Shown here: in pieces, positions 370-60,380 of the stretch
Numbering within the stretch: the first letter of the stretch is position 1
Layout: each line of letters begins with the position of its first letter
From: Planctomycetota bacterium
Lineage (GTDB): Bacteria; Planctomycetota; MHYJ01; WSZJ01; JACPWG01
Assembly (NCBI GenBank): GCA_016197205.1
Contig: JACPWG010000096.1
Location: 29,902 to 93,901 of the forward strand
Length of the DNA: 64,000 nt
Direction: 5' to 3'
Program-made: the position numbers and the translations under genes
Notes under the pieces: model-generated
The model's input: the letters and a program-made list of their open reading frames with translations, nothing else
Databases searched by the model: none
Told to the model about the DNA's origin: nothing

Positions 370-905
370 GCGCGGGCGCATCCTTTGACCCTGCAGCCGG
401 CCCATTCAAGGTGGATGAACGAGTCGACTGTTGGGGAACAGACCATGAACGGTCCGCGGGCGGAAAGGGGCGAACAGATGGGTGCTCGCCTCCGCCGGCC
501 TCGGGCCCTTGTGGTGCAGGGCGTCCGCCCAGCACCGGCGGGACAACTCGGATGGAAATCACTCAGCCCGTTGGGTGCGGGGCAGGCTCGACGGGAAGCG
601 AGGGGGGGGGGGGGCTTCGGCGGCTCCTTGCGGGTGCGGGTGCAGGATTGGATAGCCTGCTTACGGCGAGCGAGAGTGTTGCAACACCACCCGAAGCAGC
701 GATGGCTTCGACCGCCGCGCCCGAGCTCGGAGGCGCGGCTCGGCTCGGCGGACGGCCACGGCCAGGGAGCTTCCGCGTCGGGCGCCTTCGGGCCCGCTGC
801 GGCGCGTCGGACTGTCCGGGTCACAGCCGTGCTCGACGACCAGCCGCCGGGCGGGACCGTCGTTTTTCCGTCACCCTCGTCAGGAAGGGAAAGCCGGGAC
901 GGTGC

Positions 906-2240
906 CTACCAGGAAAAGGTCACGCCCATCGTTGCCGTGTGACTCTCGATCTCCTGTCGCGCGAGATTGGAGTCGACGGAGCGGAACGCGTACTGCACGA
1001 ACAGGAGGACGTGGTCCGTGAGGTTGCGCTCGTAGCGGACCGACGCCGAGAACACGCCGTCGTCGCGGGTCTCACCGGCCTCGATCGGGTCTTCGCCGTC
1101 ATACCGCTCCCAAGACATGCCAAGGGAGCCGATCAGCCGAGCCTTCTCCGAAAGGGCGTAGGACGCGCCCGCGGCGAGCCCATCGGAGGTGAACGTCTGG
1201 AAGTCCTCGTCCGCATCGTACTCCCCGTGCGTGTAGGTGAGGAACACGTAGCGATCCCAGTCGGGCAGCAGGAGAAACTGAGTCAGTGTGCCGTAGTGGG
1301 CCTGGGCGTCAAGGTCGTCGTTGACGTCGTACTCGAGATCGACGAAGTCGTATTGGCCCCTCAGCCAGAAATTCCCCCCCTGATGCAGGAGCCCGTTCGC
1401 GTACACGTGGTGCTGTTCGTTGTAGAGGTCGAGCTCGGAGCCGATCAAGTACGTCGAGTAGTCGTACCCCACACCCGCCAGGAGGCGATCGCCGAACGCA
1501 TGCTCGTAGCCGGCGCCGGGCGTGTGGGCCTGGATGTTGAAGTCGTCGACGCTCCCGTACACCGTCTGGAAGAACGTGTAGGACAGGGAGATTCGGTCGT
1601 GGTCGGTCAGTGCGAAACGATAGCCTCCGTGGACGCGCGTCCAGAATCGACCGTCCTCCTCTTCGGTGGGGGTCGCGGTCGGATCCGCCTCGTTCGGCAA
1701 TGCGATCCCGGAGACGTAATCGCCTGCCACCGTGACGCTCAGCCACCAGGGCTTGCCATCCCCGCGTCGCGTCGTGGCGGCTGCGCGCGCATCCGGGGTT
1801 CGGTAGGGGCCCTCCGGCAGCTTCCCAGACTCGATGGCCTGAAGGAGACTGCCGACCGCGTCGGCGGTGCCCGCTTCGAGCCCTGCGGCGCGAGCCTCCT
1901 TCAGGACGGTCGCCGCCTCCGCGGGTTTCCCCTCGACGGCCAGGATCAGGGCAAGGTAGCTGCGGCACGTGGCCTCGTACCGACGGTCCAATTCGGCAGC
2001 CTGCTGGAACTGTCGACGGGCAACTTCGTACTCCTTGCGTTTGTAGGCCTCGAGCGCGGCGTTGAGCGCCTCCATCGCCTTCCGTGCGTTCTCGGGGTCG
2101 ACGGCGACGCCCTGCCCTGACGCCGCGGGCGGCGGTGTCGCAGCTTGGGCGAAGCACTCCGCGCGGCCCACGAGGGCGAATAGAACAAAAAGCGCCCAGA
2201 CCTGCCCTTGTCGCGCTACGCCTGCCACACCCCTGTGCAT
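906..2240 (-). CDS. Outer-membrane beta-barrel protein with an N-terminal TPR-like helical region, carrying a signal peptide.
   Basis: ATG at 2240 gives the signal peptide MHRGVAGVARQGQVWALFVLFALVGRAECFAQA. The C-terminal half has alternating aromatic/hydrophilic beta-strand patterns and ends in F-S-W, which is porin-like. The ORF upstream of this ATG has no protein-like sequence. Confidence 0.6.
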   Translation of the reverse strand: MHRGVAGVARQGQVWALFVLFALVGRAECFAQAATPPPAASGQGVAVDPENARKAMEALNAALEAYKRKEYEVARRQFQQAAELDRRYEATCRSYLALILAVEGKPAEAATVLKEARAAGLEAGTADAVGSLLQAIESGKLPEGPYRTPDARAAATTRRGDGKPWWLSVTVAGDYVSGIALPNEADPTATPTEEEDGRFWTRVHGGYRFALTDHDRISLSYTFFQTVYGSVDDFNIQAHTPGAGYEHAFGDRLLAGVGYDYSTYLIGSELDLYNEQHHVYANGLLHQGGNFWLRGQYDFVDLEYDVNDDLDAQAHYGTLTQFLLLPDWDRYVFLTYTHGEYDADEDFQTFTSDGLAAGASYALSEKARLIGSLGMSWERYDGEDPIEAGETRDDGVFSASVRYERNLTDHVLLFVQYAFRSVDSNLARQEIESHTATMGVTFSW

Positions 2241-2319
2241 GTGAGCTCCCCCGGAAGGACTCCGTTGTAAAATTGGATCCACCACCCCACGGAAATCGGA
2301 CCTCCACGGTCGGACGGGG

Positions 2320-3477
2320 TCAATCGCAGGGCCCCAGGTCGAACACGCCGCCGGAGACGCACCTGCCGTTGGTGCAGATAACTCCGGCGCCGAAGCGCGA
2401 GCAGTCACCCGCCCCGCTCCCCGCGGTGGGGATGAGCCCCGGAAAGCGGTCCGGGTCCGAAATCAGGCGGTTGAGGAAAATGAAAAGATTTCCGATGGGC
2501 GAGCCGGTTCCCCCGACGCTGTTGATGAAGTCCGCGTTCGCCTGAAGATTCAACTGGTTCTGGCGGGCCTGGGCGAGCCGGGCCACCTCCTGGGCGTTTT
2601 CCTCCACCTGCCTGCGCAGGTTGCGGAGGTTTTCGTCCTGCTCCGCCTGGGAATTGCCGATGATCACTCCCCGTCGGTTGTTCTCCTCGAGGTTCTCCAG
2701 TTGCGCTTCCAGCGCCTGTTGCCGCCGGAGCAACTCCACTTCGGCCGCGGACAGCGGGCTGGTGGTCGAGAGTCGCAGCAGGAGGTCCCGATCCCTCTCG
2801 TTTTGCTCCAGGCGCCGGTTGAGATTCGCGATGATCTGGGCACTGGCCTCCTCCGAGCCGCCGACGAAGACTCCGCGGCGTTCGTTCTCCTTCATGTTCT
2901 CCAGTTGCGCCCGCAGCGCCTCACGTTCGAGGCGCAACTCGACCTCCGATTGGGCGCCGGAGGTGGTCGAGAACCTGAGCAGTTGGTTGACTCTGTTCTG
3001 ATTGTCCAGCACCTGCTGGCGCAGGTTCGCGAGGTTTCGATCCTGCTCCGCCTGCGAGTCGCCGATGATCACTCCCCGCCGGTTGTTCTCCTCCAGATTT
3101 TCCAGTTGGGCGCGCAGTGACCGTCCCTCGTTCACAAGTTGGTTCAGCGGATCGACCACCTGTTGTGGGCCGGTGCTGCTCGACGACTGGGTCAGTTGAT
3201 CGATCTTTCTCTGGTTCTCCTCCACCTGCCGGCGCAGGTTCGCGAGGTTCCGATCCTGCTCCGCCTGCGAATCGCCGATGATCACTCCGCGCCGGTTGTT
3301 CTCCTCCAGGTTCTCCAGTTGGTTGCGCAGCGCCTGCCCCTGGTTACGAAGTTGGACCAGCGCATCTGCAGCCTGTGCAGGCCCATCCTCGGCGTTTGCG
3401 AGCCGGCTTGCCAGGCACAGCAGTCCCACAAGGAGCGCGAGGCTACAACTGAGTCTTCGAGTGGAGTGATGGAACAT
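2320..3477 (-). CDS. Secreted repetitive coiled-coil protein with a C-terminal Cys-rich domain. It contains four tandem 60-70-aa repeats of the form LENLEENNRRGVIIGDSQAEQDRNLANLRRQVEEN.
   Basis: ATG at 3477 gives the signal peptide MFHHSTRRLSCSLALLVGLLCLASRLANA. DNA repeat units start at about 2626, 2840, 3020 and 3236. The tail is ...CSRFGAGVICTNGRCVSGGVFDLGPCD. Confidence 0.6.
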   Translation of the reverse strand: MFHHSTRRLSCSLALLVGLLCLASRLANAEDGPAQAADALVQLRNQGQALRNQLENLEENNRRGVIIGDSQAEQDRNLANLRRQVEENQRKIDQLTQSSSSTGPQQVVDPLNQLVNEGRSLRAQLENLEENNRRGVIIGDSQAEQDRNLANLRQQVLDNQNRVNQLLRFSTTSGAQSEVELRLEREALRAQLENMKENERRGVFVGGSEEASAQIIANLNRRLEQNERDRDLLLRLSTTSPLSAAEVELLRRQQALEAQLENLEENNRRGVIIGNSQAEQDENLRNLRRQVEENAQEVARLAQARQNQLNLQANADFINSVGGTGSPIGNLFIFLNRLISDPDRFPGLIPTAGSGAGDCSRFGAGVICTNGRCVSGGVFDLGPCD

Positions 3478-3732
3478 CGAGCCACCTCCTTCGGTGAGAA
3501 TCACCTTGCCGGATTTCCCCTGGAGTCGCCCCCGCCCCCTACCCTCTCCATGAGCTCCAGCCGGGTATCCCCGTCGGTGCAGCGCGGACACGTCCACCGA
3601 AGCACCGCGCGCGAAGGCGGAAGTCCTGCACCACAAGGACTCGAGGTCGGCGGACGAGAAGACTGGGAAGTTCGCTCTTTCCCGCGCTCAGGCTTTGGAT
3701 GCTCCGTATCGCGAGCGTGTCGGCGAAATGGC

Positions 3733-6423
3733 CTACCAGTCCGGCCCGTGGACCTTTCGCGCCGACAGGTAGAAGAGCGCGTGCTCCCAGATGTGCGGCG
3801 AGTCGTTGCGGGACTCGTGGGTGAGCGCGCCGGGGAGGAGTCGGGAGAACTCGCCGAGGTGGCCGGTGCCGGTCGTCGGAACGTGGGTGGCGAACGAGGC
3901 GAGGATGGCGGCAAGTTCCGCCTCTTTCGCGGCGTCGCCGTGCCAGGCGAAGGAGAGCGCGAGGACCTGCTCGAGGTTGTAGGCGTAGTCGCCGGGCGTG
4001 CCCGCCAGGAGGGGGTCGAGAGTCGAGCGGAGCGCGTCCGCGTGCGGCGCGAGTGCCGGCGCGCCGGGCAGGCCGAAGAGGTTCGCCGGAAAGACCGCCC
4101 AGGTCGGGCCGCGGAGATTCGCGTCCGGACCCGTGAGCGTGCCGAAGACGCCGGTCGCGGGATTGTGGAAGTGCGACCAGATCGCCGTCTTCAGCGTATC
4201 GCGGCGCGACGCCCACGCTGAAACGAGCCAGGCCGCCTCCCCTTGCTCCGTGCCCGCCGCCACCGCGGCGTCGAGCGCGAGCCAAGTCGACACGGCCCCC
4301 TGTGAGCCCTGCGTGAGGGCCGGCACGTCGTCTTCGTTCGCCGGGAGGGGCAGGCCGGAGAACGGGTCGGTCCAATACGTCAGGAAATTCGCCCCGCGCT
4401 TGATGGCCGGATAGACCTCCGCCAAGTACGCCGTGCGCACGGCGCCGGCGAGCACTTCGCGATGGCTCGCCATGGACCAGACCGCGAGCGCTGCGTTATC
4501 GATCTCGAAAATCACCGGGCCGCCCGGCGTCCCGTCTGGTGCGTAGTTCATCTCCATGGTGCCCTGGAAGAACCCGGACGAGCGCTGGACGTGGGCGTAG
4601 AAAAGGTTGTGCTTCGTCGCGAGCGCGGGGTAGCCGGCGATGTCGAGGAGGCGATTGAGGAAGGCCCCGTCGCGCGGCCAATCGAACGCGTAGGGGATCT
4701 GCGGGGCGACGGAGGCCACGATGGCGCCGGTCGCGTTGTCGATGGCCGTGCGCAGCGAGATGAGGCCGCGGCGCGAGAGGCGCAGCACGTCCGGGTCGGT
4801 CGTGGCGGGCAGGATCGCGGCGCCGAGCCAGCCGTGCCACCAGAGCTGCGTGTTGTGGAGGTGCGTCGTCCACGGCACCGCGCGGGCAGTCGTGAGGACG
4901 TTCAGCGCGGCGGGCTGCGTGGCCGCGGCCGCGATGTACACGGTGACGCCGTCGGTCGTGCCGGCCTCCCCCGGCGTGCTGAGCGCGACCACGTCGTCGC
5001 CGCCACCGCCCCCGGGCGCGCCGAGGTCGAGGGGCCAGGCGAGCGCGCCGGCGGCCCGGGCCGCGCTCAGGGTGTTTCCCGAGAGCACGCCGTCCGCCGC
5101 GTCCGCGAGCGGGGAGAGCGCGGTCGCGCTGACGTTCGGCTCCAGGTCGTAGCCGAGCTGGTGGCCGGCGGTGGTCCGGTCTGAGCCGATCGTCAGGTAG
5201 ACGCCTGGGCCGAAGGTCGCGCCGGCCGCGGCGGCGGGGTTGGGGCCGGACCGCCAGGGCGGGAGCTTCGTGTAGTCCGCCACGCTGGGCCGGAAGTGCA
5301 GGATCGCGTCCTTCGTCGGCACCCAGACCGCGGCGAAATCGTTGAACGGATCGAGCAGCCAATCGGAGTATGGGATGCGAGCGAACCGATCGGTGCACGG
5401 GTCGAGATTTTCGTAGTAGATGAACGTCGCGGAGGTGACGGGGGACGAAGGCGCGCGCGTGACCTCGAAGCGGCGGACGAGGAGGTCCTTGGTGGGGTGG
5501 ACGAAGTCGCGCGAGGTCACGTGCAGGCCGAGCACGGCGTTATCGAACTCGGTGACGAGGATCGCGCTGGTGTCCTCGAGGTAGGTCTGCGAACGCGTCC
5601 ACTCGGAACCGTGCAGCAGCGAGAGGCCGGAGGTCCCGTCCGACGCGGTCCAGCGGATGGCGCCGAAGGAGCCCATGCCGGGCTCGGCGCCGAGGCGGGG
5701 CGCGGACCGGTCGGTCGCGCGATAGGCGACCTGGTCGAGGCCGCCGGGCCCCGGCCAGCGCAGGAGGGCGAGCGTGCCCTCGGCCGTGATGCCGGCGGTG
5801 AGCTTGCCGCTCCCGAGGGCGGCGTTGAGGGTCGCCGGATTCGATTCGATGAGCGCGGCGAAGGTCGGCGGCGCGTGGAGGGGTTCGCCGAAGGCCTGCG
5901 CGAGAATCGAGTGGTAGGCTGCCGACGCGACCGGAGGGAGGCCGGAGAAATCGGCCGGCGGGGTGCCGGGGGGCGCGAGGAGATTCGTCGCGCCGGTGAT
6001 CTCGGCGAGGGAGTTCACGACCTCCCACCAGGGACGGCCGCCGTATCCCCCGACGACGAGGGTGGAGTGGTCGACGAGGACCGTCCCGGCGGTGGTGACG
6101 TGGGTGGCCGTGAGGGCGTGCAGGCCGGGCTGGAGGCGGAGCCGCAGGTGTCGGCCGGCGCCGAGGTCGCCCGAGAGGTCGCTGGTCCACGTGATGGCGT
6201 CTGTCGGAAGCGCGACGCCGTGTGCGTCGCGTACCCGGGCGTCGAAATCCAGCCATTCGCCGAAGCCTCGCGCCGAAACGCCTGTCGGGGCGAGGATCTG
6301 CAGGCTTGCAGCCGGCCCCGCCGCGGGCGGGAGGCAGCCGCCGAGAAGTGCGAGTGCGAGCACCGCGATGGAAGAAACCGTCGACGCGACGCGTCCGCTG
6401 CGACCCGGGCCCTTCGACGCCAT
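3733..6423 (-). CDS. Lipoprotein of the glycoside hydrolase family 15 type (glucoamylase/glucodextranase-like).
   Basis: Start at 6423 is preceded by GGAGG. The lipobox is LALLGGC. The motif YAFDWPRDGAF matches the GH15 W-x-R-D signature. Protein length is about 896 aa. Confidence 0.55.
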   Translation of the reverse strand: MASKGPGRSGRVASTVSSIAVLALALLGGCLPPAAGPAASLQILAPTGVSARGFGEWLDFDARVRDAHGVALPTDAITWTSDLSGDLGAGRHLRLRLQPGLHALTATHVTTAGTVLVDHSTLVVGGYGGRPWWEVVNSLAEITGATNLLAPPGTPPADFSGLPPVASAAYHSILAQAFGEPLHAPPTFAALIESNPATLNAALGSGKLTAGITAEGTLALLRWPGPGGLDQVAYRATDRSAPRLGAEPGMGSFGAIRWTASDGTSGLSLLHGSEWTRSQTYLEDTSAILVTEFDNAVLGLHVTSRDFVHPTKDLLVRRFEVTRAPSSPVTSATFIYYENLDPCTDRFARIPYSDWLLDPFNDFAAVWVPTKDAILHFRPSVADYTKLPPWRSGPNPAAAAGATFGPGVYLTIGSDRTTAGHQLGYDLEPNVSATALSPLADAADGVLSGNTLSAARAAGALAWPLDLGAPGGGGGDDVVALSTPGEAGTTDGVTVYIAAAATQPAALNVLTTARAVPWTTHLHNTQLWWHGWLGAAILPATTDPDVLRLSRRGLISLRTAIDNATGAIVASVAPQIPYAFDWPRDGAFLNRLLDIAGYPALATKHNLFYAHVQRSSGFFQGTMEMNYAPDGTPGGPVIFEIDNAALAVWSMASHREVLAGAVRTAYLAEVYPAIKRGANFLTYWTDPFSGLPLPANEDDVPALTQGSQGAVSTWLALDAAVAAGTEQGEAAWLVSAWASRRDTLKTAIWSHFHNPATGVFGTLTGPDANLRGPTWAVFPANLFGLPGAPALAPHADALRSTLDPLLAGTPGDYAYNLEQVLALSFAWHGDAAKEAELAAILASFATHVPTTGTGHLGEFSRLLPGALTHESRNDSPHIWEHALFYLSARKVHGPDW

Positions 6424-6797
6424 CAGACCTCCTCGTGCCGTCTTTCCGCGCAATCCGCCCGCCTTCGCGGGCCCCAAAGAAGCGGAGCAGTTTAGCGGGA
6501 GCCGCCGGCGGAGTCAAGAGGATTGAACAGGTCGCGGATCACCGCAAGCCATGGGCACGGAGGACTCGTTGGAGGCCGGCGCGGGCGATCGGGCGCTGGG
6601 CGGCTGCGTCGATGCAGGCGTGGCCTGCGAGAGCCGCGGGACCGCTCGCTCACGCTCGCGGTTCGGTTCGATCGGTGCCCGTGCGCGTGCCAAGCGGTCG
6701 CGACGCAGGTGGCGCCCGGCGCAAACGAGCGCGCCCGCGCCGGGACCTCTCCGGTCCACGGCGCGGGCGCGCGAGCGTTGCTTTAGGCGAGGCGGCT

Positions 6798-11385: not shown

Positions 11386-11610
11386 GTGCCGGCGTGGGCA
11401 CGGCAGCGCCGTGCCCCTACGGCCAGGAGCACGCGGTGTGGCTCGACCCGCGGCCGCATCCGGTAGGGGCACAGCGTCGCCGTGCCCGCGTGAGCGGTCC
11501 GCGCCTCCACGCGGCCGTCGAACGCGTAGGGGCACGGCGCTGCCGTGCCCTCGGCTACGATGGATGCTCTCAATCGGCGGCCAACGGGTAGGGGCACGGC
11601 GTTGCGGTGC
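11386..11610. repeat. Tandem array of four 25-bp hairpin-forming palindromic repeats (GTAGGGGCACGGCGCTGCCGTGCCC) separated by unique 37-42-bp spacers. It is REP/BIME-like; the first copy is inverted.
   Basis: Copies are at about 11386, 11453, 11516 and 11578. The core has the 9-bp stem GGGCACGGC/GCCGTGCCC. Confidence 0.6.
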
Positions 11611-11616
11611 CCTCGA

Positions 11617-19007: not shown

Positions 19008-19255
19008 GGGGCGTGAGACTCCGACCAGGGGGTGACCGACGGCGGGGCGCGGTTGATCGTGCGGCGGCGCACATTCTGACAGCCGGGGCGGGAGGTTGTC
19101 AACTGCGGCGCGCGGGTCGAGTGCGAGATGGGAGGCTGGTGGTGGGAGGGGGCGAGGCGCGAGTTCGTGCGGGCCGGAGGCCCGCACCCCCAGGAGGGGG
19201 GTGACCAGACGGAAGGGCCGCGCGAGGTCCACGGGCGTCGATCCTCGAGCGCACC

Positions 19256-19287
19256 CCCTGGGGGCGCGGGCCTCCGGCCCGCGCGCA
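19256..19287. repeat. REP-like perfect palindrome CCTGGGGGCGCGGGCCTCCGGCCCGCGCG, copy 1 of 3.
   Basis: The 9-bp stem is GCGCGGGCC/GGCCCGCGC with loop TCC. It lies immediately left of the islet's direct repeat. Confidence 0.6.
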
Positions 19288-19304
19288 CGCCGCAACGTCA
19301 ACAC

Positions 19305-19482
19305 CCTCGCGCCCAGCCACTCCTTCGCCGCATCCAACAGGCTGTAGAACGCCGACACGACGACGAGCGTCAGCCCCGTCGACACGATCACTCCCCCGAT
19401 GACCGCCATGCACATGGGAACCCGGATTTCCCCGTCCGGCCCGAGCGCGAGCGCTCCCGGCACGGCCCCCGCCACGGTGGAA
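19305..19482 (-). pseudogene. Orphan fragment duplicating about 57 codons of the C-terminal region of the RND transporter gene 21390..24497. It corresponds to the displaced 3' end at an integration site.
   Basis: The translation AGAVPGALALGPDGEIRVPMCMAVIGGVIVSTGLTLVVVSAFYSLLDAAKEWLG is about 90% identical to residues near the RND C-terminus. The DNA is about 90% identical to 21459..21630. Confidence 0.7.
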
Positions 19483-19660
19483 TTTCCTTGGCTCCCGTTT
19501 CCCGGCTTGGGATACTACGCAGTCGGGAAGGCCTGGAGAGCGTACACGAACACCTCCCATGCGGACAGGGGCACCGCTGCGGACAGGGGGTACCGCGACG
19601 ATCCACGCAGTCACGGAACTCCATGCGACAATCCTTTTCCCGACTTGACAGGGGTGACCA

Positions 19661-20419
19661 ATGGCTAAGTGGTTTCGCACGAGGATACGGGAGGCCCGAG
19701 AACGCCTTGGACTGTCTCAGGCGGAAATGTGCCGGAGGTTCGGGGTCACCCAAAGCGCGATCTCGACCTGGGAAAATGGTACGTCGGAACCGCGGGACGA
19801 GCAGTACGAGAAGGTTGTCAGCTTGATCGAGAGTCTCGAGATTCAAGCGGAAGCAGACTCCAAAAGAGTCGTCGCAGACGAGCAACCCAGCGACCAGGAC
19901 GGCGAGCAGGACGTAGGTCAGGGACAGGTTGTTGATGGGAGGAGCAAGGGACCGACCAAAAGGGAATCAAAGATCGATGACGATGTCGTCCTTGGCCTCG
20001 TCCCTGCGGATGGGGCAGCCATCGGCAACCTCCGTCTGATAAAGGAGGTCGAGGCACGTGGCTGGAACTCGGACAAATTCTGGAGGGTTCGAGATCGGCT
20101 TCTCGATGCCGGGAGAATCATCAAAGGGCGAGGTCGCGGAGGTAGCGTCCGTCGACAGGTGATCGAGGCTGCTGAGCAAGCTACACCCTTGGCCGGGCCA
20201 CGGCTGCGCGTATCCGAGCAGTCTCTCTACTCCCCGTTGCTGAAGGTGCTTCAGGGCGAGTGGGTCAAGGACATGCAACTTGCGCCTCACCAGATCCATT
20301 TCGAGGAAACGGCGAAGCAGGGGAAAAAGGCGACAGGTGGTACGTGGACGCGGCCCGATATCACGGCTGTCAGCGTACGCTCGTATCCATATCTCCCAAA
20401 CAAATACCTCGACGTGTAG
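19661..20419 (+). CDS. Xre-type HTH protein forming the N-terminal 252 aa of an HTH/PD-(D/E)xK-like nuclease ORF. It terminates at an amber codon 20417-20419 that is in frame with the next ORF.
   Basis: The N-terminus has an HTH_3 pattern: LGLSQAEMCRRFGVTQSAISTWENG. The C-terminus contains ..TRPDITAV.. (a candidate PD motif). Local GC is lower, about 52-58%. Confidence 0.6.
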   Translation: MAKWFRTRIREARERLGLSQAEMCRRFGVTQSAISTWENGTSEPRDEQYEKVVSLIESLEIQAEADSKRVVADEQPSDQDGEQDVGQGQVVDGRSKGPTKRESKIDDDVVLGLVPADGAAIGNLRLIKEVEARGWNSDKFWRVRDRLLDAGRIIKGRGRGGSVRRQVIEAAEQATPLAGPRLRVSEQSLYSPLLKVLQGEWVKDMQLAPHQIHFEETAKQGKKATGGTWTRPDITAVSVRSYPYLPNKYLDV

Positions 20420-20437
20420 ACCTTTGAGGCCAAGACG

Positions 20438-20743
20438 GTGGACGGGCTCGACGTGACGGCGATCTTTGAAGCCGCAGCGCACGCCAGTCGTGCGACCAGA
20501 TCGTATGCTCTTTTGCAAGTACCCGAGAAGGACAGCGAGCACACGGAGGAAATCCTGAGTCGGTGCGTGTACGAAGCCACGCCCCTTCGCGTCGGGATGA
20601 TCACTTTCATCGATCCAGCGAACTATGCTACTTGGGACCCTCGTGTGGACGCACCGCGGGTCGACACGGATCCTGAACTCTTGATGCAATTCATCGCCAC
20701 ACTGACGGATGAGGCTCGAAAGCGCCTCTCGGAGTGGAAGTGA
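20438..20743 (+). CDS. In-frame continuation of 19661..20419, separated only by a TAG and 6 sense codons. It contains FEAK (a candidate (D/E)xK motif). It is either the C-terminal part of a nonsense-interrupted nuclease or an independent small ORF with a GTG start.
   Basis: Frame arithmetic: 20438-19661 = 777 = 3x259. The sequence reads ..KYLDV* TFEAKTVDGLDVTAIFEAAAHASR... It has the same codon bias as the upstream ORF. Confidence 0.45.
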   Translation: MDGLDVTAIFEAAAHASRATRSYALLQVPEKDSEHTEEILSRCVYEATPLRVGMITFIDPANYATWDPRVDAPRVDTDPELLMQFIATLTDEARKRLSEWK

Positions 20744-20943
20744 CGGGGCCGCACGACTGCGCTCTGCTTCTGGATCGGTGGACACGAACCTGTGCTCCGA
20801 CTTCGACAAGTGAGTCGCGTGCCAGCCGATCACAGCGGATCGTGCCACGCGCCGCCGCTCATGCAGACCAGTCCACTGCATCAGCGCCTTGCCCGGCAGG
20901 CGAGCCATGCGATCGGATCACGCGAACATCGGAGGACGGACGC

Positions 20944-21144
20944 ATGAACATCGAAATCGAGCGCGAGTCGGACGGGAGGTGGATCGCGGAAGTGCCGGAT
21001 CTGCCGGGGGTGATGGCGTACGGGCGGACTCGAAAGCAAGCGATAGCGAAGGCTGAGTCGTTGGCGCTGCGGGTGATCGCGGATCGCCTCGATCATGGGG
21101 AGGCGGTTCCGGAGTTGCACGAGCTCTTCGCGGTGTCCGCATGA
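20944..21144 (+). CDS. hicB: HicB-family antitoxin.
   Basis: MNIEIERESDGRWIAEVPDLPGVMAYGRTRKQAIAKAESLALRVI is HicB/UPF0150-like. GGAGGA lies 8 nt upstream of the start. A 4-nt overlap links it to hicA. Confidence 0.7.
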   Translation: MNIEIERESDGRWIAEVPDLPGVMAYGRTRKQAIAKAESLALRVIADRLDHGEAVPELHELFAVSA

Positions 21145-21356
21145 GTCGCTGGCCGTCGGCCAAGGCAAAGCTGGTTCTTGCCGCGCTCTTCCGCATCGGT
21201 TGGGTCGTCAAGCGCCAAAGCGCGGGATCGCACCGCGTGCTCGCTCGACCGGGCTGGTTGGATTACGTCTTCGCCTTTCACGACCGAAATGAAATTGGCC
21301 CCCGGATGCTCGCCCGGATCGCGAAGCGCACCGGCCTGCGCCCGAAGGATCTCTAG
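21141..21356 (+). CDS. hicA: HicA-family mRNA interferase toxin.
   Basis: MSRWPSAKAKLVLAALFRIGWVVKRQSAGSHRVLARPGW is a YcfA/HicA-like fold. Confidence 0.7.
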   Translation: MSRWPSAKAKLVLAALFRIGWVVKRQSAGSHRVLARPGWLDYVFAFHDRNEIGPRMLARIAKRTGLRPKDL

Positions 21357-21389
21357 GGTCGGCCGAATTTCCATTTTTGGGACCGTGCC

Positions 21390-24300
21390 CTACCTGATCG
21401 CTGATCCAGTGTCCACAGGTTCGCGCAAGGTCATTTCTGGCGTCCTGCTCACGACCCCGCCCAGCCACTCCTTTGCCGCATCCAGCAGGCTGTAGAACGC
21501 CGGCACGACGACGAGCGTCAGCAGCGTCGACACGACCATCCCGCCGATCACGGCCATGCACATGGGCACCCGGATCTCCCCGCCCGGCCCGAGCGCCAGC
21601 GCCCCCGGCACGGCCCCCGCCACGGTCGAAAGCGACGTCATCAGGATCGGACGCAGCCGCACCGGGCAGGCCTCGAGCAGCGCCTCGTCCCGCCCCTTGC
21701 CGGCCTCCCGGAGCTGGTTCGTGTAGTCCACCAGCAGGATCGAGTTTTTCTTCGCGATCCCCATCAAGAGGAGAATGCCGATCATGCTGTAGATGTTGAG
21801 CGAGGCGCCCGCCAGCCACAGCGCGACCAGCGCGCCCGTGACGCTGAAGGGGAGCGCGAGGAGGATCGTGAGCGGGTGCGCGAAGCTGTTGAACTGCGAG
21901 GCGAGGATCATGTACGCGACGAGGATGCCCAGGCCGAGGGCGAAGAGGAGGCTCTCGAAACTCTCCCGAAACGTCTGGGCGCTGCCGGACACCACCAGGC
22001 GATAGCCTTCGGGCACCACCTCGCGTCCGATCCGCTCGACCGCGGCCAGCGCGTCCGCCTGCGACTTTCCGGGCGCGACGTTGCCGAAAACGCCGATCGC
22101 CCGCTCCCGCCCGCGTCGTTGAATCACCTGGAGCGTCGGCTCTTCTTTCACCGTCACGACGTCCGAGAGGCGGATGAGCGCGCCCTCGCGATTCCGCACC
22201 GCGAGTCGACGCAGGTCCTCCGGACGGAAGCGTTGCGCGCGCAGCAGCCGCACGCGGACGTCGTACCGTCGGCCGCGCGACTTGAAGCGACCTGCGCGGA
22301 CGCCCCCCACCAGCGCATTCACGGTCGTGCCGATGGAGGCCATGCTTACGCCGAGGTCCGCCGCCCGCTTCCGATCGGGGAGGACCTTCGCCTCGGGCTG
22401 CCCGACCAGGTAGTCCGTGTCGACATCCACGCACAGGCCCGTCTCCTTCATCCGGTCCATGACCTCTCGGGAGACCTCCGCCAGCTTGTCCCAGTCCGCC
22501 CCGCGGATCGAGAACTCCACGGGATAGCCGCGCTGCGCGCTGAAGCCCGTCTGCGACAAGTCCTGAATGCCGACCCTCACGCCGGGCATGCGGTTGAGCT
22601 GGGTCCGGAACCGCGCCATCAGGTCCTGCATCGTCGCCTGCCGCCCGCGCTTCGGCTTGAACGTCGCGAAGAGGATCGCGGTGTTCACGTCGCCGCCGCC
22701 GAAACCGCCGACCGAGGAGAAGTACCGGTCCAGCTCGGGCTGCGCCATGGCGTAGGCTTCGCACCGGCGGACCAGCTCGTCCGTCGCCTCGATGGACGTG
22801 CCGACCGGGGTCTGGATCCGCGCGAGGAAGCGGCTCTGGTCCTGCGAGGGGACGAATTCCCTCGGCAGGAAAAGCACGGCGACGCAGGAGGAAACGAAGA
22901 GCGCCGTCGCGAGGAGCAGCGTCGCCAGGCGCCACCGGAGGCACCACCGGAGCACCCCGCCGTAGAAGCGCGCCAGCGCCCCGAACGCGTGGTCGGCCAA
23001 GGCCCCGATGCGCGTGGTGCGTGCCCCGACGTCCAGGAACTGCGCGCAACGCGAGGGCGTGAGGGTGAGGGCCTCCAGGAGCGAGAGCGCGACGGCGACC
23101 GAGAGCGTCACGCCGAACTGGAAAAAAAAGACTCCGATGATGCCCTTCATGAAGGCGACCGGGAGGAAGATCGCCAGGATCGCGGCGGTGGCCGCGATCG
23201 CCGCGAACGCGATCTGCCCTGTCCCCTCGGAGGACGCGCGGACGCGGTCCTTGCCCGACTGCGCGTGCCGGACGATGTTCTCCATCACCATGATCGCGTC
23301 ATCGACCACGATGCCGACGGAAAGGGACAGCGCGAGCAGGGAGAAGGTGTTGAGCGTGAACCCGAGGAAGTACATCGCGGCGAAGGCGCCGATGATGGAG
23401 GTCGGGATCGCGAGGAGGATGTTGAGGGTCGAGGTGAGCGACCCGAGGAAGAGCCAGCAGACGAAAGCCGTGAGAAGGATGGAGAGGACGAGCGTGAACT
23501 CGATCTCGTGAATCGCCTCCTCGACGAAGGCGGTGGCGTCGAACACGACCGACAGCTCGAGGTCTTTCGGGAGCTGTTTCCGGAGCTCCGCAACGCGGGC
23601 CTTCACGGCCTGGCCGACCGCGACGGCGTTGGCCCCGCGCTGCTTCTTGATCCCCATGCCCTGGGCGGGGAGGCCCATGGAGCGCGCGATCCGGCGCACG
23701 TCCTCGAAGCCGTCCTGGACGAGCGCGACGTCCCGCAAGAGGACCGGCCGTCCGCCCCGCTCCGCTACGACGATCGAGCGGAGACCCTCCAGGGAAAAGG
23801 CCTCCCCCTCGACGCGGACGTTCACTTCCCGGACCGAGGTCTCGATGCGACCGGCCGGCACTTCCACGTGCTCGCGGGCAAGCGCCGCGACCACGTCCTC
23901 GACCGTGAGCCTGTACGTCTCCAGCCCGTCGAGGTCAAGCCATACGCGGACGTTTCGGTCGAGGTAGCCGCCGAGCATGATCTCCGCCACGCCGGGAACG
24001 GTCTGGAGCTTCTCCTTGAGGGTGAAGCGCACGTAATCGGCCAAGTCCTGCGGCGGACGAGCGCCCGCGAGCGCCACCCACATGATGGGCTGGTCCTCGG
24101 GATTCGTCTTCGTGACCACCGGCGGATCCAGGTCGCGCGGGAGTCGCCGCTGCGCCTGGGCAATCTTGGTTTGCACCTCCTGAAGGGCCTGGTCGATGTT
24201 TCGGCCCAGGTTGAATTCGATCGTGATCGTTGCGGCACCGTTCTTCGAACTGGAGGAAACCTCGCGGACCCCGTCGACCGTCATCACGGCGTCCTCGATG

Positions 24301-24497: not shown

Positions 24498-24760
24498 GCT
24501 GTGGATTTGAGATTTGAGAATGGAGAATTCAGATTTGGGCAGGGTTCAAATCGGCAGCGTGAGGGAAACACGCTTTCGTGTCCGGACGTAGGGGCGGGCC
24601 TTGTGCCCGCCCTGTTGGCGACACCGCGCAGTCCAACGGCTTGCGGCCAGTCGTGGGCGCCCACAAGGGGCGCCCCTACGGCGGGTGGCCGGCGGCAGGC
24701 TGTAACGAAAGCCGGCCGCGGTCGGCTCGCCGTCAATTCTCAAATCCCAAATCCCAAATC
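24498..24760. repeat. MITE-like insert filling the MFP-RND intergenic space. It has inverted GATTTGAGATTTGAG... ends and an internal GC-rich palindrome GGGCGCCCACAAGGGGCGCCCCTAC. A related copy lies at about 54930..55100.
   Basis: The ends at 24504-24540 and 24740-24760 are inverted repeats of the (C)AAATCCCAAATC type. The internal roughly 100 bp are shared with 54940-55060. Confidence 0.5.
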
Positions 24761-34484: not shown

Positions 34485-34493
34485 CGAAATCCC

Positions 34494-34626
34494 AAATCCC
34501 AACTCGGGCGAAGGCCCGAAACCCAAACGGACGACGAAACCACCAAGCCACCAAGGCACGAAGACCACGAAGGACCGTCACTGAGGGGGGCGAGTTTGGC
34601 TCGGCCGAAAAGCGCCTTTGTGGTCT
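34494..34626. repeat. A 133-bp structured dispersed repeat, copy 1. A second copy lies at 62293..62425 with about 98% identity. Each begins with the AAATCCCAAATCCC motif.
   Basis: Both copies abut a gene stop codon (DUF362 protein; ABC ATPase). They contain internal inverted symmetry and could be a MITE or a small RNA. Confidence 0.55.
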
Positions 34627-46783: not shown

Positions 46784-46867
46784 GAGGGAGAATCGTCACG
46801 AGCTGTTCATGGGGACGACCGGAGAGCAGAAGCTCTACACAACAATTTCCGAATTCCCGTCACGATT

Positions 46868-46898
46868 CCTGGGGGCGCGGGCCTCCGGCCCGCGCGAA
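46868..46898. repeat. REP-like palindrome, copy 2, lying between the Ser/Thr kinase and the NACHT gene.
   Basis: It is identical to the 31-mer at 51427..51457 in inverted orientation. Confidence 0.6.
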
Positions 46899-46998
46899 CT
46901 GGCACTTGTCCTCCACTTCCCCGCAACCGCGGGCCCAAAGGTGACCAGTGTTCGTCAACGCGGTACTCGCCACCGTGGCGCCCGGAGCCGAGCCCGGC

Positions 46999-51306: not shown

Positions 51307-51426
51307 GGGGGCTCTCCGAAACGTGTGGATTCGCGGACAGCACGGACCCGGGGAGCGCGTGGCCCGTGGACGGAATTTGAACACGGTCCTCAGCCGAGTT
51401 ACGGCAAGCCGTAGCTCTGGTGGCCG

Positions 51427-51457
51427 TTCGCGCGGGCCGGAGGCCCGCGCCCCCAGG
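51427..51457. repeat. REP-like palindrome, copy 3 (inverted), lying upstream of the PtuA-like ATPase.
   Basis: Its reverse complement matches 46868..46898. Confidence 0.6.
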
Positions 51458-51691
51458 AAGGGCGTCTGGAATTCGTGAATGGGGCAGTAGGAATTCGATG
51501 CTTGCTCCGCGAGTCTAACCTATCGAACGCGTGGAAACAAGCCGAACGTCCTCGATCGCGTGCGACTTTGATTCGTCGATCGTTGCGCTCGGCGGGAGAA
51601 TGTTGCAAAATAGCGGCACGAGGTCAGCCGCCGGGAATTTGCCGGAGTGTCGCGGCGGATACCCACCCCGGTCCTTTGAGGCGCTTCTCGC

Positions 51692-53779
51692 GTGACGGAA
51701 CACAAGCACACCAACCGGCTCGTCCGGGAGACGAGCCCGTACCTCCTCCAGCACGCCCACAACCCGGTGGACTGGTACGCCTGGGGGCCCGACGCGCTCG
51801 AAGCGGCGAAGAAGGCGGACAAGCCGATCTTCCTGTCCATCGGCTACAGCGCCTGCCACTGGTGCCACGTGATGGAGCGCGAGTCGTTCGAGAACGAGGA
51901 AACGGCCGCGCTCATGAACCGGCACTTCATCAACGTGAAGGTCGACCGCGAGGAGCGGCCGGACCTGGACGAGATCTACATGGGCGCGGTGCAGCTCCTG
52001 ACCGGGCGCGGGGGCTGGCCGATGTCGGTCTTCCTGCTGCCGGACCTGCGCCCGTTTTTCGGCGGGACGTATTTCCCGCCCCGCGACGGAATGGGCATGC
52101 CCGGCTTTCCGACCGTGCTGGAGCAAATCGCGCGTGCCTTCAAGGCTCGTCGACTGGAGCTTGGGCAGAGCGCGGAAAAGATCGTCGAGGCGGTCCGCGA
52201 CATGTGCGCGATTCAAGGCGAGCCGGGGGCGGTGGACGCCTCCCTGCTCGACCGCGCATGCGAGGGACTCGTCAAGGGCTTCGACCGCGAGCACGGCGGC
52301 TTCGGCCACGCGCCGAAGTTCCCTCCGAGCATGGAACTGAACCTGCTCCTGCGGCGGCATCGGCGCGGCCGCGACGCGCGCTACCTCGAGGTCGTGGAGA
52401 CGACGCTCGACCGCATGGCCCGGGGCGGCATGTACGACCAGGTCGGCGGCGGCTTTTGCCGCTACTCGACCGACGAGCGCTGGCTCGTGCCGCACTTCGA
52501 GAAGATGCTCTACGACAACAGCCTCCTCGCCCGCACCTACCTCGCCGCCTGGCAGGCGACCGGCAAGCCTTTCTACGCCCGGGTCGCTCGGGAAACGTTG
52601 GACTACGTGCTGCGCGACATGAGCCGCGCCGGAGGCGGGTTCTTTTCGGCGGAGGACGCGGACAGCGAGGGCGTCGAGGGCAAGTTCTACGTATGGGAGC
52701 CCGCCGAAGTCCTCTCGCTCCTCGGCGACGAAGACGGCCGGCTCTTTTGCGAGTTCTACGACATCACGCGCGAGGGGAACTTCGAAGAGAAGAACATCCC
52801 CAATGTCCCGACGCCCATCGAGGAGTTCGCCCGTGCCCGGAAGCTGGACGCCGAGACGCTCGTGGCGCGACTCGACGCCGGGCGCGCGAAGCTGCTGACG
52901 GCGCGTGCGCGGCGCGTGCGGCCCGGGCTGGACGACAAGCTCCTGACGAGCTGGAACGCGCTCATGGTGCGCAGCATGGCGGCCGGCTGGCAGATCCTGG
53001 GCGACCGCCGGTATCTCGACGCGGCGATTGCGACCAGCCGCTTCCTGCTCGACACGCTGCTCAAGGACGGCCGGCTGCTCGTGACGTGGCGGGCCGGCCA
53101 GGCGAAGCTGAACGCCTACCTCGACGACTACGCCTTCCTCCTCGCCGCGCTCCTCGACCTCTACGAGTCGACGTTCGACCGCGTGTGGCTGGACGAGGCG
53201 CTCCGCCTGAACCGCACCGTCCTCGAACGCTTTTGGGACGCGAAGGAGGGCGGGTTCTTCTTCACCTCGGATGATCACGAAACGCTGCTCGCGCGCACCA
53301 AGGCCCCATATGATGGCGTGATCCCTTCGGGGAATTCCGAGATGGCCATGAACCTGCTGCGGCTGTCGCTCCTGACGGGGGACGCGGACCTGAGGGAGCG
53401 GGCCGGGCGGATCCTCTCGCTCTTCCACGAGAGCATGGCCTCCTCCCCGCGCGGCTTCGCGAACATGCTCTGCGCGCTGGATTTTTTCCTCGGCCCGACG
53501 ACCGAGGTCGCGCTGGCCGGGCCCGCGGGTTCCGCCGAAGTCGAGGGTTTCCTGCGCGCCATCCACGGACGCTACCTGCCGAACCGTGTGCTCGCGTTGA
53601 CGGACCCCGGCGACCCCGGCGCCGCCGACCTGGAGCGGACCGTTCCACTCCTCGCAGGCAAGCGGCTCGCGGACGGCAAGCCGGCGGCGTACGTCTGCAC
53701 CGCGAGCACGTGCAGCCTGCCGGTGACGAGCGTGGAGAAGCTGGCGGAGCAGCTCGAGGCCGGAGGGGGCGGGGAGTGA
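51692..53779 (+). CDS. Thioredoxin-domain protein of the YyaL/DUF255 family (thioredoxin-like plus six-hairpin glycosidase-like fold).
   Basis: The conserved N-terminus is [55 protein letters not shown]. Confidence 0.85.
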
Positions 53780-53823
53780 GGGGGAGCCGCCCTTGGAGAA
53801 CGAAGCAGGGCGCGCCCACGATC

Positions 53824-53866
53824 GAAAAAAAGACGGCGACGGGCCCGCGCGCGCGGACCCGTCGCC
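53824..53866 (-). terminator. Rho-independent terminator for the His/Cys lipoprotein gene.
   Basis: The stem GGCGACGGG..CCCGTCGCC is followed by T7 on the minus strand. Confidence 0.6.
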
Positions 53867-53919
53867 GGACGATCAACGTTCCGAACAAGTCCGCCGTGCG
53901 CGGCTCGCTCGACTGCGCC

Positions 53920-54705
53920 TCAGTGGTGTTTCTTCTTTCCCCTCAGGTCGATCGTCACGGTCCATTGACCATTTGCGAAGAAGTGCCCGCACCCCGGTCC
54001 ATGCACGTGGCTCTCGACGAGCACCCACTTGCCGCACCCGGCGTCGTAGCAGTGACCGCACTCGGCGCTGTGGACGTGCCCGACGGGGATTTCGACGTAG
54101 AGCCCCGGGATCGCGACTTCGACGGCCGGTTCGTCGACCACGACGGCCCACTGGCCGTCCAGGAACACGTGGCCGCAACCCGCGCCGTGGACATGGCCCG
54201 CCTGGAGCAGCCAGGCGTGCCCGTCCCAGTAGTGGCCGCATGCGGCCGAATGGACGTGCACCGCCGGTACGCTCACGCCTACTTCCAGGGAAGGGGCGCC
54301 GAGCGAGAGCGTCCACTGGCCGTTCACGAAGTAGTGTCCGCAGCTCGGCCCGTGTACGTGCTGGGCCAGCACGACCCAGCCGTGGCCGTCCCAGCAATGT
54401 CCGCAAGTGGCGCTGTGGGCGTGACCCAGGGGAACTGTGACGTACGCCGACGGGAGGGTGACGGCCACCGTGGGCGCCCCGACGGCGAGTATCCATCGGC
54501 CGTCACTGTAGAAGTGGCCGCACCCGGGCCCGTGCGCGTGATTCGCGATCACGACCCACCCATGTCCGTCCCAGTAGTGTCCGCACGTCGCCGTGTGCAC
54601 GTGCCCCTCGACGAGTATGTGCGGTCCGTCGACGGTCGCGGTACAGCCGGCGAGCGCGAGCGCCAGCCCGATCCAGACAACCAGTACACTTGTACACTTG
54701 AGCAT
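53920..54705 (-). CDS. His/Cys-rich lipoprotein built from eight 29-aa units (HxH-x3-CGH-x4-GxW). It is a putative metal-binding protein.
   Basis: AGGAGG RBS. The lipobox is LALALAGC. The repeats read HVHTATCGHYWDGHGWVV / HAHGPGCGHFYSDGRW and so on. Confidence 0.65.
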   Translation of the reverse strand: MLKCTSVLVVWIGLALALAGCTATVDGPHILVEGHVHTATCGHYWDGHGWVVIANHAHGPGCGHFYSDGRWILAVGAPTVAVTLPSAYVTVPLGHAHSATCGHCWDGHGWVVLAQHVHGPSCGHYFVNGQWTLSLGAPSLEVGVSVPAVHVHSAACGHYWDGHAWLLQAGHVHGAGCGHVFLDGQWAVVVDEPAVEVAIPGLYVEIPVGHVHSAECGHCYDAGCGKWVLVESHVHGPGCGHFFANGQWTVTIDLRGKKKHH

Positions 54706-55140
54706 GACTTCCTCCTGTCCTATGGGAGACGCTCCGCCCCGCTTCGAGCCCATGCCCGGAGGGACGGTCGAAAGTTCGCCTGTCGCATCGCGGCTCATTT
54801 CCGTTGCCCTCCTGGTCCCTGTCCGGATTCTCCAGACTTCGTGGCCAGCAAGTTGAACATTAGAAAGCTGTTGTTACTGTATAATATATTCGATATTTGT
54901 GAAATGTCAATCAGAATGTGAGTGCGCAGAGTGCGCGAGGCCCGTCCGCAAGGTCTCTGCTCGAGCGGGCCCGCAAGGTCCTTTCGATGGGTGCGGTAGG
55001 GGCGCCCCTTGTGGGCGCCCAGCGGCGGACGCCGCTTGCGAGACCGGCGGGCACAACGCCCTACGCCTCGATGGGTGAGTAGGCTGCTTGCGGCCGGCAG
55101 CAGGGCGTAGGAGCCATCCTGAGAGGGCTGGCCCTGACTC

Positions 55141-55249
55141 CTGGAATGGTAGCAAACGCTGAACATTCGCGGAACGCCGACCTGCGTGTACTTCTGCTGA
55201 GTCGTGCCGCAGCCTGGAACGGTAGCAAACCCTGAACATTCGCGGAACG
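55141..55249. repeat. Two 36-bp direct repeats, CTGGAAYGGTAGCAAACSCTGAACATTCGCGGAACG, 73 bp apart, ending 37 nt upstream of the CPBP protease start.
   Basis: Direct reading. Possible paired operator sites or a duplicated small-RNA seed. Confidence 0.5.
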
Positions 55250-55285
55250 AGGCCAAACGGCCCTTCTGGAGACTGCAGGATCCGC

Positions 55286-56209: not shown

Positions 56210-56357
56210 AGGACCGCAGGTTTCGCCGGACAGCAGCCCCGTTCTGGAAGGCCCGCGGTGATGGGAGCGGAGGCCAGCCCTTTCAGGGCGTTCGACTACT
56301 GTGAGCTGGAGGTTCGGCTGCCGGGTGCGGGAACGATCGGCCTTGCACCTATGATTT

Positions 56358-56575
56358 TCCGCCGGCCTCGAGCCCTTGTGGTGCAGGGCTTCCGCCCTGC
56401 ACCGACGGGACGCCCCGCGTGGAATTCGCAGAGCCTGTGGAGTGCGGGGGCGGCCAGAGAAGGTTGGGGAGGAGCTTCAGACTCTTCGTGCGAGAGCGGG
56501 TGCAGGGCGGACTCGTCCACCGAAGCGCCGCGCGCGAAGGCGGAAGCCCTGCACTACAAGGCCGGCTCAAGTCGC
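56358..56575. mobile_element. Solo MITE-like element with 29-bp terminal inverted repeats (CCGCCGGCCTCGAGCCCTTGTGGTGCAGG ... CCTGCACTACAAGG...).
   Basis: The same TIRs occur at 492..520 and 3625..3653 bracketing a 3.2-kb cassette. The internal sequence is related. Confidence 0.55.
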
Positions 56576-56633: not shown

Positions 56634-56810
56634 GGGCTGGGGCAGAAGCCTATGCCGCCTTCGCTGCCTTCCTCGGCCAGAGCGCGCACGCGAGGCCCAC
56701 GGCGAGGTAGCAGCCGCAGGTGATGGCCCACGCGCTGGGCGCGAGCGCGCCCGCCGCGGCACGCAGCCCCTGCAACTCGCGGTTGGCGGCGCCGTGCGTT
56801 GCCGCGGCCC
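56634..56810. repeat. A roughly 175-bp direct repeat, copy 1. Copy 2 lies at 60541..60720 and is nearly identical.
   Basis: The two copies bracket the 3.7-kb decayed block (hsdR::IS66 remnant, orphan gene, TA pair, ATPase pseudogene). Confidence 0.6.
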
Positions 56811-56937
56811 TGTGCGCGTCGGGGAGGCGCCGCGAGAACGGTCGCGAAGCGGCCGAGGGCGCGCGTCTCCGTAGCAACGCGTCCCCTCCTACCACCTCAT
56901 TCCTGATCCGTCCCTTGCTGCATCGAGACGGGTGCGC

Positions 56938-58773: not shown

Positions 58774-59012
58774 GTGGAGCTGGGCAGGACAGCCTCGACC
58801 GAGACCCGGGGGCGCGCCCGCGGCCGGTGAGCTTCTCTCGCCCCACGCGGAGGTTTCCAATCCAAGCTCGGCACTCTTGGAGCAGATCCGGCGCGACCGC
58901 GGTCCACCTTCTCCGCCCCGACAGCAGCCTACAGCGGCAGATCCGCCCCGCCGTCCCGCCATTCCTCCGCCTCGGTAGCCGACCGCACGAGTAGGAGGTC
59001 CTCGACGACCTC

Positions 59013-60330: not shown

Positions 60331-60380
60331 GGCAAACGCTCCGGTCTCATCCAACCTGGCGTGGCGTGCGCATGCGTATT

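Follow-up and report, generated by a model that had tools for sequence, protein, structure and literature searches.

The question raised by this locus is whether a two-gene operon enclosed by inverted repeats travels as the passenger of a mobile element or is an ordinary resident beside which repetitive DNA has come to lie. The operon occupies the block 491–3654 of a 64-kb stretch of Planctomycetota DNA (GenBank assembly GCA_016197205.1, contig JACPWG010000096.1, positions 29,902 to 93,901 of the forward strand; G+C content 68.8 %), referred to in the following as the window. A gene-less element of the same repeat family is present about 53 kb away. An earlier note on this DNA had proposed either a non-autonomous transposable unit that captured a surface/secretion cassette or a pair of MITEs (miniature transposable elements with inverted repeats) mobilising the sequence between them. 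This interpretation is partly supported here: in structure, the block at 491–3654 corresponds to a mobile insertion cassette (MIC), and the small element at 56358–56575 to a collapsed relative that resembles a MITE. We tentatively read 491–3654 as one symmetric non-autonomous repeat element with the two-gene operon at its centre, structurally a MIC, and prefer this reading without holding it to be probable.

A profile search of the window with the arm sequence recovered three full arms, 491–598 (+), 56358–56465 (+) and 3654–3513 (-), with E values of 1e-28 to 1e-26, one truncated arm at 56575–56499 (-; E 3e-6), and no arm beyond these four. In all three full arms the homology sets in at one and the same nucleotide (TCCGCC...), and the sequences outside it are unrelated. 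Among them 34–37 of the 39 terminal positions agree (87–95 %), as do 36–40 of the 64 interior positions (56–62 %); conserved termini with a drifting interior are what would be expected if the termini were recognised by a protein. The earlier note had described terminal inverted repeats (TIRs) of 29 bp at 492..520 and 3625..3653 with two mismatches. The inverted repeat was recovered, with three mismatches between 492–520 (+) and 3625–3653 (-) and one between 492–520 and 56359–56387 (+), and the arms in fact extend over about 110–145 nucleotides (nt). In pairwise alignment the two ends of the large unit agree as inverted repeats at 39 of 43 positions, the longest perfect identity between its two arms being 14 nt, and none of 100 shuffled controls for the terminal repeat gave any match.

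Homology continues inward past the hairpin that each arm contains. When the interior of the right arm is read from 3575 to 3512 in hairpin register, it is identical at 40 of 64 positions to 537–600 and at 36 of 64 to 56404–56467, whereas all other offsets gave 19–26 of 60 and random segments of the window 17.4 +/- 3.6 of 60, with a maximum of 32 among 20,000 samples. The hairpins of the two right-type arms have 33 additional loop nucleotides in common, 30 of which are identical. All four arm units are extragenic; the right arm begins 78 nt past the stop codon (3733) of an upstream gene encoding a GH15-like protein and is placed between that stop and the start of the second passenger gene. An extension of the large unit's repeat (CTCG/CGAG) was rejected as a feature of the family because the small element does not have it.

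The small element had been described as a cargo-less element of about 220 bp with the same TIRs, and this was confirmed, with a length of 218 nt, by its alignment to both ends of the large unit: approximately 150 nt on its left align with 491–646, and 63–77 nt on its right align with 3576–3653 at 92 % identity. It is, in effect, 491–646 joined to 3576–3654, the two parts overlapping in the sequence GGTGCAG(G), which stands at 639–646 and 3576–3582 in the large unit and at 56499–56506 in the small one. Its own TIR has a 23-nt core with one mismatch; the element folds as a long hairpin, is intergenic, contains no open reading frame (ORF) with a coding pattern of G+C content at third codon positions (GC3), and terminates at a distance of 74 nt from the stop in a displaced 3' gene end. 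The two ends of the large unit are exact complements and together form a symmetric whole, and a deletion derivative is the best fit for the small element. The idea of a MITE pair did not hold, as the ends of the large unit are complementary halves of one symmetric element and not two complete MITEs.

In the mechanism that we propose, the large element would be bounded by inverted arms of about 110 nt on the left and about 143 nt on the right, each starting from TCCGCC and each bearing a stem-loop like that of repetitive extragenic palindromic (REP) sequences, and in the small element, of the same family, a deletion between the two GGTGCAG direct repeats would have removed the centre as well as the inner right arm. 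Deletion between direct repeats is the usual route from a longer parent to a MITE. Because a single symmetric element and one deletion explain every feature, this reading is preferred over those invoking an insertion or two copies. With identities of about 62 % in the left interior and about 92 % in the right part, the small element cannot be descended from this very large copy, and it is too diverged for fewer than two long or short members of the family to have existed. The coordinates of all features are collected in Table 1.

Table 1. Features of the two-gene unit and of the small element in the window
Feature	Position	Strand	Description
Left arm	491..600	+	TIR 491-529; REP-like hairpin; interior 537-600
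Left-arm hairpin	GTGG 511-514; stem 513-522 / 527-536	+	Loop GTCC
Inner left end	601..646	+	Matches spacer of small element; 13-G tract 602-614; terminates in GGTGCAGG (639-646)
Non-coding stretch	647..905	.	From left end to stop codon of the outer-membrane protein gene; no counterpart in small element
Passenger gene 1, HYZ53_16580	906..2240	-	444 aa; Sec signal; TPR-like helical domain ~49-138; 14-strand β-barrel 165-443
Passenger gene 2, HYZ53_16585	2320..3477	-	385 aa from ATG; Sec signal (ANA/E cleavage); four helical repeats of 67-71 aa; 73-aa tail
Right arm, inverted	3512..3654	-	TIR 3654-3616; interior 3575-3512
Right-arm hairpin			GGTGCAG 3576-3582 as closing sequence (right-hand junction repeat); 33 extra loop nt
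Gene-less collapsed copy	56358..56575	+	218 nt
Small element, left arm	56358-56467	+	Full; perfect hairpin 56380-56403
Small element, spacer	56468-56498		
Small element, right arm, truncated	56575-56499	-	Hairpin with 33-nt loop; TIR core 56539-56561

Window positions 535–6662 are reproduced with one single-nucleotide difference by an independent Logan assembly of the same read set (run SRR12113391). One assembler's artefact can thus be dismissed as the source of the cassette, of its right repeat and of the junction with the upstream gene. The run of 13 G at 602–614, for which the small element has GGTTGGGGAGGAG, is of the same length in the Logan assembly and possibly prone to slippage. One Logan contig (L009) starts at 535, within the left arm. 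Another (L010) matches 52490–56387 without mismatch and ends in one flanking base followed by exactly the first 30 nt of the terminus of the small element. The Logan graph uses k = 31, and a break at this point is what a branch at the terminus would give in a graph of 31-mers. Since the 30-mer does not occur in any other copy of the arm in the window, a further copy is probably present in the sample. The contig breaks at 535 and 56387 may be taken as a hint of additional arm copies, suggestive only.

As the earlier note had stated, exactly two genes lie between the TIRs: two ORFs have coding-type GC3, and both are on the minus strand. Their products are 100 % identical to HYZ53_16580 and HYZ53_16585 of the NCBI metagenome-assembled genome (MAG) named 'Planctomycetes bacterium', where they are encoded on a contig of 162 kb. 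Family searches related neither passenger to transposition, and PHROGs contained no match for either. GC3 is 0.83 in gene 1 and 0.80 in gene 2 as compared to 0.91 in the adjacent gene for the GH15-like protein, with which the operon is co-directional.

The first passenger, HYZ53_16580, gave weak TPR and β-barrel matches and no match to SlipAM (DUF560, PF04575) even at E <= 10. Remote homologues numbered 195 at E <= 1e-3, with identities of at most 34 % among the 150 listed. In an alignment of 43 sequences, i.e., the query and 42 homologues, family matches were to BBP2_2 (14 sequences), SlipAM (8), DUF2860 (6) and TPR_Slam (1). The AlphaFold model built on this alignment has a mean predicted confidence (pLDDT) of 87 and bears out the earlier assignment as an outer-membrane β-barrel with a TPR N-terminus, showing N-terminal helical repeats followed by 14 strands, whereas the model from the single sequence (pLDDT 39.6) was unusable. 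Its best overlaps in the PDB are with the 14-strand barrels OmpG and CymA; the TPR-barrel exporters BcsC and PgaA are among the matches as well. Slam barrels likewise have 14 strands. HYZ53_16580 is distantly related to the BBP2 and Slam (DUF560) families.

The second passenger gene is preceded by a ribosome-binding site (AGGAGG, 7 nt upstream). Its product, HYZ53_16585, had been characterised as a secreted protein with four near-identical repeats and a Cys-rich tail. The four repeats and the tail, with four Cys within the last 27 residues, were recovered, while the repeats proved to be 37–68 % identical to one another and are thus not near-identical. A match to a halocin-C8-like N-terminal family is borderline, at 27.2 bits vs. 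a cut-off of 27.

Outer-membrane protein and secreted partner recur together elsewhere. Seven loci with homologues of HYZ53_16580 could be placed on contigs, and at every one of them there is an adjacent gene on the same strand with no Pfam match on record. The four partners seen whole (contigs L015, L019 and L021) combine a signal peptide with a sequence rich in low-complexity or coiled-coil segments, the other three being cut C-terminal fragments. Cys-containing C-terminal tails are present in five of the seven: a C-[VP]-[SA]-G ... C tail with a spacing of x(7-12) is shared by the partners on L012, L014 and L018 and the one in the window, where it falls within 2320–2400, and a CxYC...CxC tail by those on L015 and L021. 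Both partners on L019 end in VAPSTLSF. On L014 (1–477) the partner gene ends in a Cys loop that is followed by a segment SDRRLKTNIE..., probably of the type found in the S74-like domains of tail spikes, which are self-cleaving intramolecular chaperones. The short C-terminal Cys loop of the partners may be a sorting tag. Since homologues of HYZ53_16580 also adjoin small secreted proteins, the pair of outer-membrane protein and small secreted partner is probably a functional module, in which the role of the TPR and 14-strand-barrel protein would be the export or anchoring of the Sec-secreted repeat protein next to it.

How far does the anatomy speak for movement? The claim of a non-autonomous transposable unit with a captured cassette is upheld by the inverted arms, the sharp common termini, the conserved ends, the gene-less copy and the lack of an internal transposase, and is not borne out by a target-site duplication (TSD). 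TSDs and a cognate transposase were the traces that the earlier note had suggested to look for, and neither was found: no duplication of 2–10 bp is present at either element, the flanks GGTGCTCGCC before and CGAGAAGACT after the one and ATGATTT before and TCAAGTG after the other having no direct repeat in common, and there is no transposase, REP-associated tyrosine transposase (RAYT), Y1/HUH enzyme or recombinase among the genes and ORFs scanned in the window, the sole transposase trace being a C-terminal remnant of IS66 at about 57.4–57.7 kb.

Further observations weigh against movement of the block as a unit, as do the two just given. No second copy of the cassette was found, and the arm family occupies only two loci in the 64 kb. 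A refined pattern of the element had 0 matches in JGI metagenome contigs and IMG/VR, and no element DNA was found in PLSDB. The arm interiors are about 40 % diverged, so that any movement must be ancient, and the outer 16 nt of the right end of the small element are degenerate. Both passenger proteins are singletons at the 90 % cluster level among 5.8 billion clusters, a finding that, like their GC3 below that of the adjacent gene, also counts in favour of a carried operon; this GC3 is, however, within the range of other genes in the window. Only one homologous locus was of sufficient length to be informative, and its gene pair is not bounded by inverted repeats. Contig breaks such as those at 535 and 56387 can, moreover, arise in other ways: of six contig ends examined, two fall in sequence that is not repeated.

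No insertion sequence (IS) with these ends was detected in the window, PLSDB, IMG/VR or JGI metagenome contigs, and the repeat protein had no match in PLSDB. The pattern CCTTGTRGTGCAGGRCKTCCGCC, run against the genome collection, returned among the matches listed only a chance match in a conserved coding gene of Mycobacterium/Actinomycetota. A search for ORFs that other copies of the element might encode came back empty. The flanking GH15-like gene had no relatives with which an empty site could be compared, and no related genome or metagenome locus was found for a comparison of presence and absence.

If the preferred reading of a single symmetric element is followed, the elements would be moved or copied by a protein whose gene lies elsewhere in the genome and which recognises the hairpin together with the conserved terminal 40 nt or so. 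The combination of absent target duplications with hairpin-bearing ends points to a duplication-free mechanism, e.g., one employing an enzyme of the RAYT or IS200-type HUH kind; a cut-and-paste DDE enzyme would be less likely. The arms would lie in the 5' and 3' untranslated regions of the operon transcript and, being complementary, could also influence mRNA stability. We know of no REPIN-type element, i.e., one built from paired REPs, that has been described with cargo. That a hairpin-recognising, duplication-free mobilisation, REP/RAYT-like or similar, carried an operon for an undescribed two-component export module consisting of a TPR and 14-strand barrel and a Cys-loop-tagged secreted partner is a more far-reaching proposition and, taken as a whole, quite unlikely.

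The structure of the hairpins bears most directly on the strongest alternative, according to which two independent, partly decayed insertions of REP/REPIN or MITE type flank an ordinary resident operon whose genes never moved with the repeats, the arms having at most a role at the RNA level, as hairpins that terminate or stabilise the transcript in the way REPs do. Each arm has the tag GT[G/A]G followed by a 10-bp stem, e.g., GGTGCAGGGC-TTCC-GCCCTGCACC, an imperfect palindrome within the 20–40 nt of a REP. This left-type hairpin folds with -13.7 kcal/mol (z -5.5), the other with -10.5 kcal/mol (z -2.1). The tag, which is partly paired, reads GTGG in three of the units and GTAG in the fourth. 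The terminal core of the arm is built as a REP unit, and this architecture of GT[G/A]G, 10-bp stem and 4-nt loop speaks for two separate insertions.

Canonical REPs are also at hand. A simple scan of the window located clusters of GTAG-tagged palindromes, of the forms GTAGGGGCACGGC..GCCGTGCCC and GTAGGGGCGCCC-CTTGT-GGGCGCCC, at 11394–11614, 24588–24679 and 54996–55022. They are REP-type repeats, from which it follows that the genome may encode a RAYT; no family was found in the window by Rfam at gathering thresholds. REPs with the GTAG tag are described from the PVC superphylum, to which Planctomycetes, Verrucomicrobia and Chlamydiales belong; most REPs are situated downstream of genes or where two genes converge, frequently as dimers in inverted orientation, and inverted REPs or long TIRs are described on either side of RAYT or TIRYT genes (PMC3733652). 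Two REP insertions would also accord with the position of the right arm and the small element close to the stops of genes and with the missing target duplications. What this explanation requires, however, is that two separate truncations happen to be complementary, the left copy retaining everything up to 8 nt into the right hairpin and the right copy retaining exactly the remainder together with the arm interior. The arms are homologous for 20 nt on the outer side of the hairpin and for more than 60 nt on its inner side, far more than the 20–40 nt of a REP, and only four units are present in 64 kb. Two independent insertions, close to the situation that the earlier note had named as refuting its claim, are a strong rival, somewhat less likely than the single symmetric element.

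The junction repeat suggests a second alternative, in which a 2.9-kb segment with the two genes inserted into a pre-existing element of the 218-nt type and GGTGCAG(G) is the resulting TSD of 7–8 bp. The repeat does directly bound the segment at either side, the order of sequence in the small element follows that of the two ends, and the G+C content of the passengers is somewhat below that of the flanking gene. On this account, however, 3512–3575 would be part of the inserted DNA, yet it is homologous to the arm interior in hairpin register; GGTGCAG is an intrinsic hairpin arm in every arm, so that its recurrence needs no duplication, and the segment has no inverted ends of its own. An insertion of this kind appears very unlikely. 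Less probable again is that the regulatory regions 5' and 3' of the operon were duplicated long ago as a segment, with loss of the genes at the second locus and no mobile element involved: the arms do coincide with the upstream and downstream non-coding regions of the operon, and the small element does equal both fused, but neither the ends as inverted repeats of each other over about 110 nt nor their sharp common termini are accounted for. Least probable of all, arms serving as recombination sites of an invertible segment that switches the operon on or off relative to read-through from the GH15-like gene would suit inverted repeats around a surface-protein operon co-directional with its upstream gene, where an in itself uninformative consensus scan for sigma-70 promoters and terminators detected no sigma-70-like promoter, but there is no recombinase gene nearby, at a second locus these arms make up an element without genes, and their perfect identity is as short as stated above.

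Returning to the single symmetric element with its operon, almost nothing is known about the mobile DNA of this uncultured lineage. If the block moves as a unit, gene-less miniatures and gene-carrying relatives would be spreading surface or secretion modules within it, and if our reading is true, the locus would offer a clean natural case of a miniature element derived from a longer parent by deletion between short repeats. Regardless of mobility, the recurrent pairing of a TPR-barrel protein with a small, C-terminally tagged secreted protein suggests an uncharacterised export or anchoring module related to BBP2/Slam.

Several other sequences in the window deserve mention. Another palindromic intergenic family (GTTCGYGCGGGCCGGAGGCCCGC...CCCCAGGA) occurs as inverted pairs at 19148–19289, 46845–46914 and 51420–51480. 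A 135-nt repeat present with 99 % identity at 34492–34626 and 62291–62425, the latter site with an internal inverted repeat of 42 nt (62331–62372 / 62414–62455), probably represents a further miniature repeat family. Direct repeats of 159 nt (97 % identity; 56648–56806 and 60560–60718) duplicate the 3' end of a membrane-protein gene and enclose 3.8 kb of decayed mobile DNA (56807–60559) with an HsdR_N fragment fused to the IS66 C-terminal fragment, a DUF5615/DUF433 pair and a split AAA_15/21 ATPase. A Logan contig (L011) joins 56807–60607 to 215 nt absent from the window, and the left junction of this region is therefore either polymorphic or misjoined in the MAG. A direct repeat of 173 nt (90 % identity; 19310–19482 and 21458–21630) surrounds a 2-kb region of low GC3 with a helix-turn-helix gene, and 19310–21630 could represent another small insertion, set between two copies of a gene end. 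The gene at 53920–54798 (-) encodes a protein of 292 aa without Pfam match, with repeated H-V-H-x-x-x-C-G-H motifs, which is probably a secreted His/Cys-rich metal-binding protein.

With regard to known systems, the passenger pair is most readily compared with Slam and the type XI secretion system (T11SS), which share with it the order of N-terminal periplasmic TPR and C-terminal barrel as well as a Sec-secreted neighbour (DUF560, PF04575; PMC8406197, PMC12282271). Cargo of the T11SS is defined by a C-terminal eight-strand barrel (PMC12282271), whereas HYZ53_16585 continues for 73 residues past its last repeat, with four Cys and no match to a barrel domain. HYZ53_16580 differs in the lack of a SlipAM match, its homologues matching BBP2_2 more often (14/43 vs. 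8/43), and the organism stands outside the Proteobacteria. Judged from sequence, membership in Slam/T11SS would fail on two defining points, the DUF560 match and the eight-strand-barrel cargo.

As for the repeats, two classical arrangements were rejected: a composite transposon, given arms of 110–143 nt that are non-coding and the lack of a transposase gene, and an integron cassette, given arms that are inverted instead of direct and the lack of an attC core. The 218-nt element resembles MITEs in being non-coding and intergenic, in its TIRs and long hairpin and in its look of an internal deletion, and it falls within their size range of about 70–300 bp; it departs from them in having no TSD and one degenerate outer terminus. 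REPs and REPINs and the gene-bearing REPtrons and TIRtrons (PMC3733652, PMC3116915) have in common with the arms a GT[A/G]G-tagged palindrome near each terminus, inverted pairs, the absence of target duplication and an extragenic position downstream of genes, and the bracketed genes recall the layout of REPtrons and TIRtrons. Unlike in these, the bracketed genes do not encode a tyrosine (HUH) transposase, the GTGG tag is found in three of the four units, and the conserved unit measures about 110 nt as opposed to 20–40 nt. REPs come in tens to hundreds of mostly extragenic copies; the 64 kb examined contain four of the present units.

MICs consist of passenger genes between IS-type inverted repeats without a transposase (PMC4337579). 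Known examples, MIC231 of Bacillus cereus and the TnXax1-derived cassettes with effector genes of Xanthomonas (PMC4337579; PMC3129680), have a named parent IS or transposon and a TSD (5 bp for TnXax1), while for the unit studied here no parent IS was found in the window or in the collections searched, no duplication is present, the cassette is unique and thus leaves no trace of transposition in the form of copies at other loci, and the arms are long, about 110–145 nt, and equipped with hairpins. In their essential layout the two agree: inverted repeats enclose passenger genes with no transposase among them, the genome also contains these repeats in the form of miniature elements free of genes, and the passengers have surface or secreted functions.

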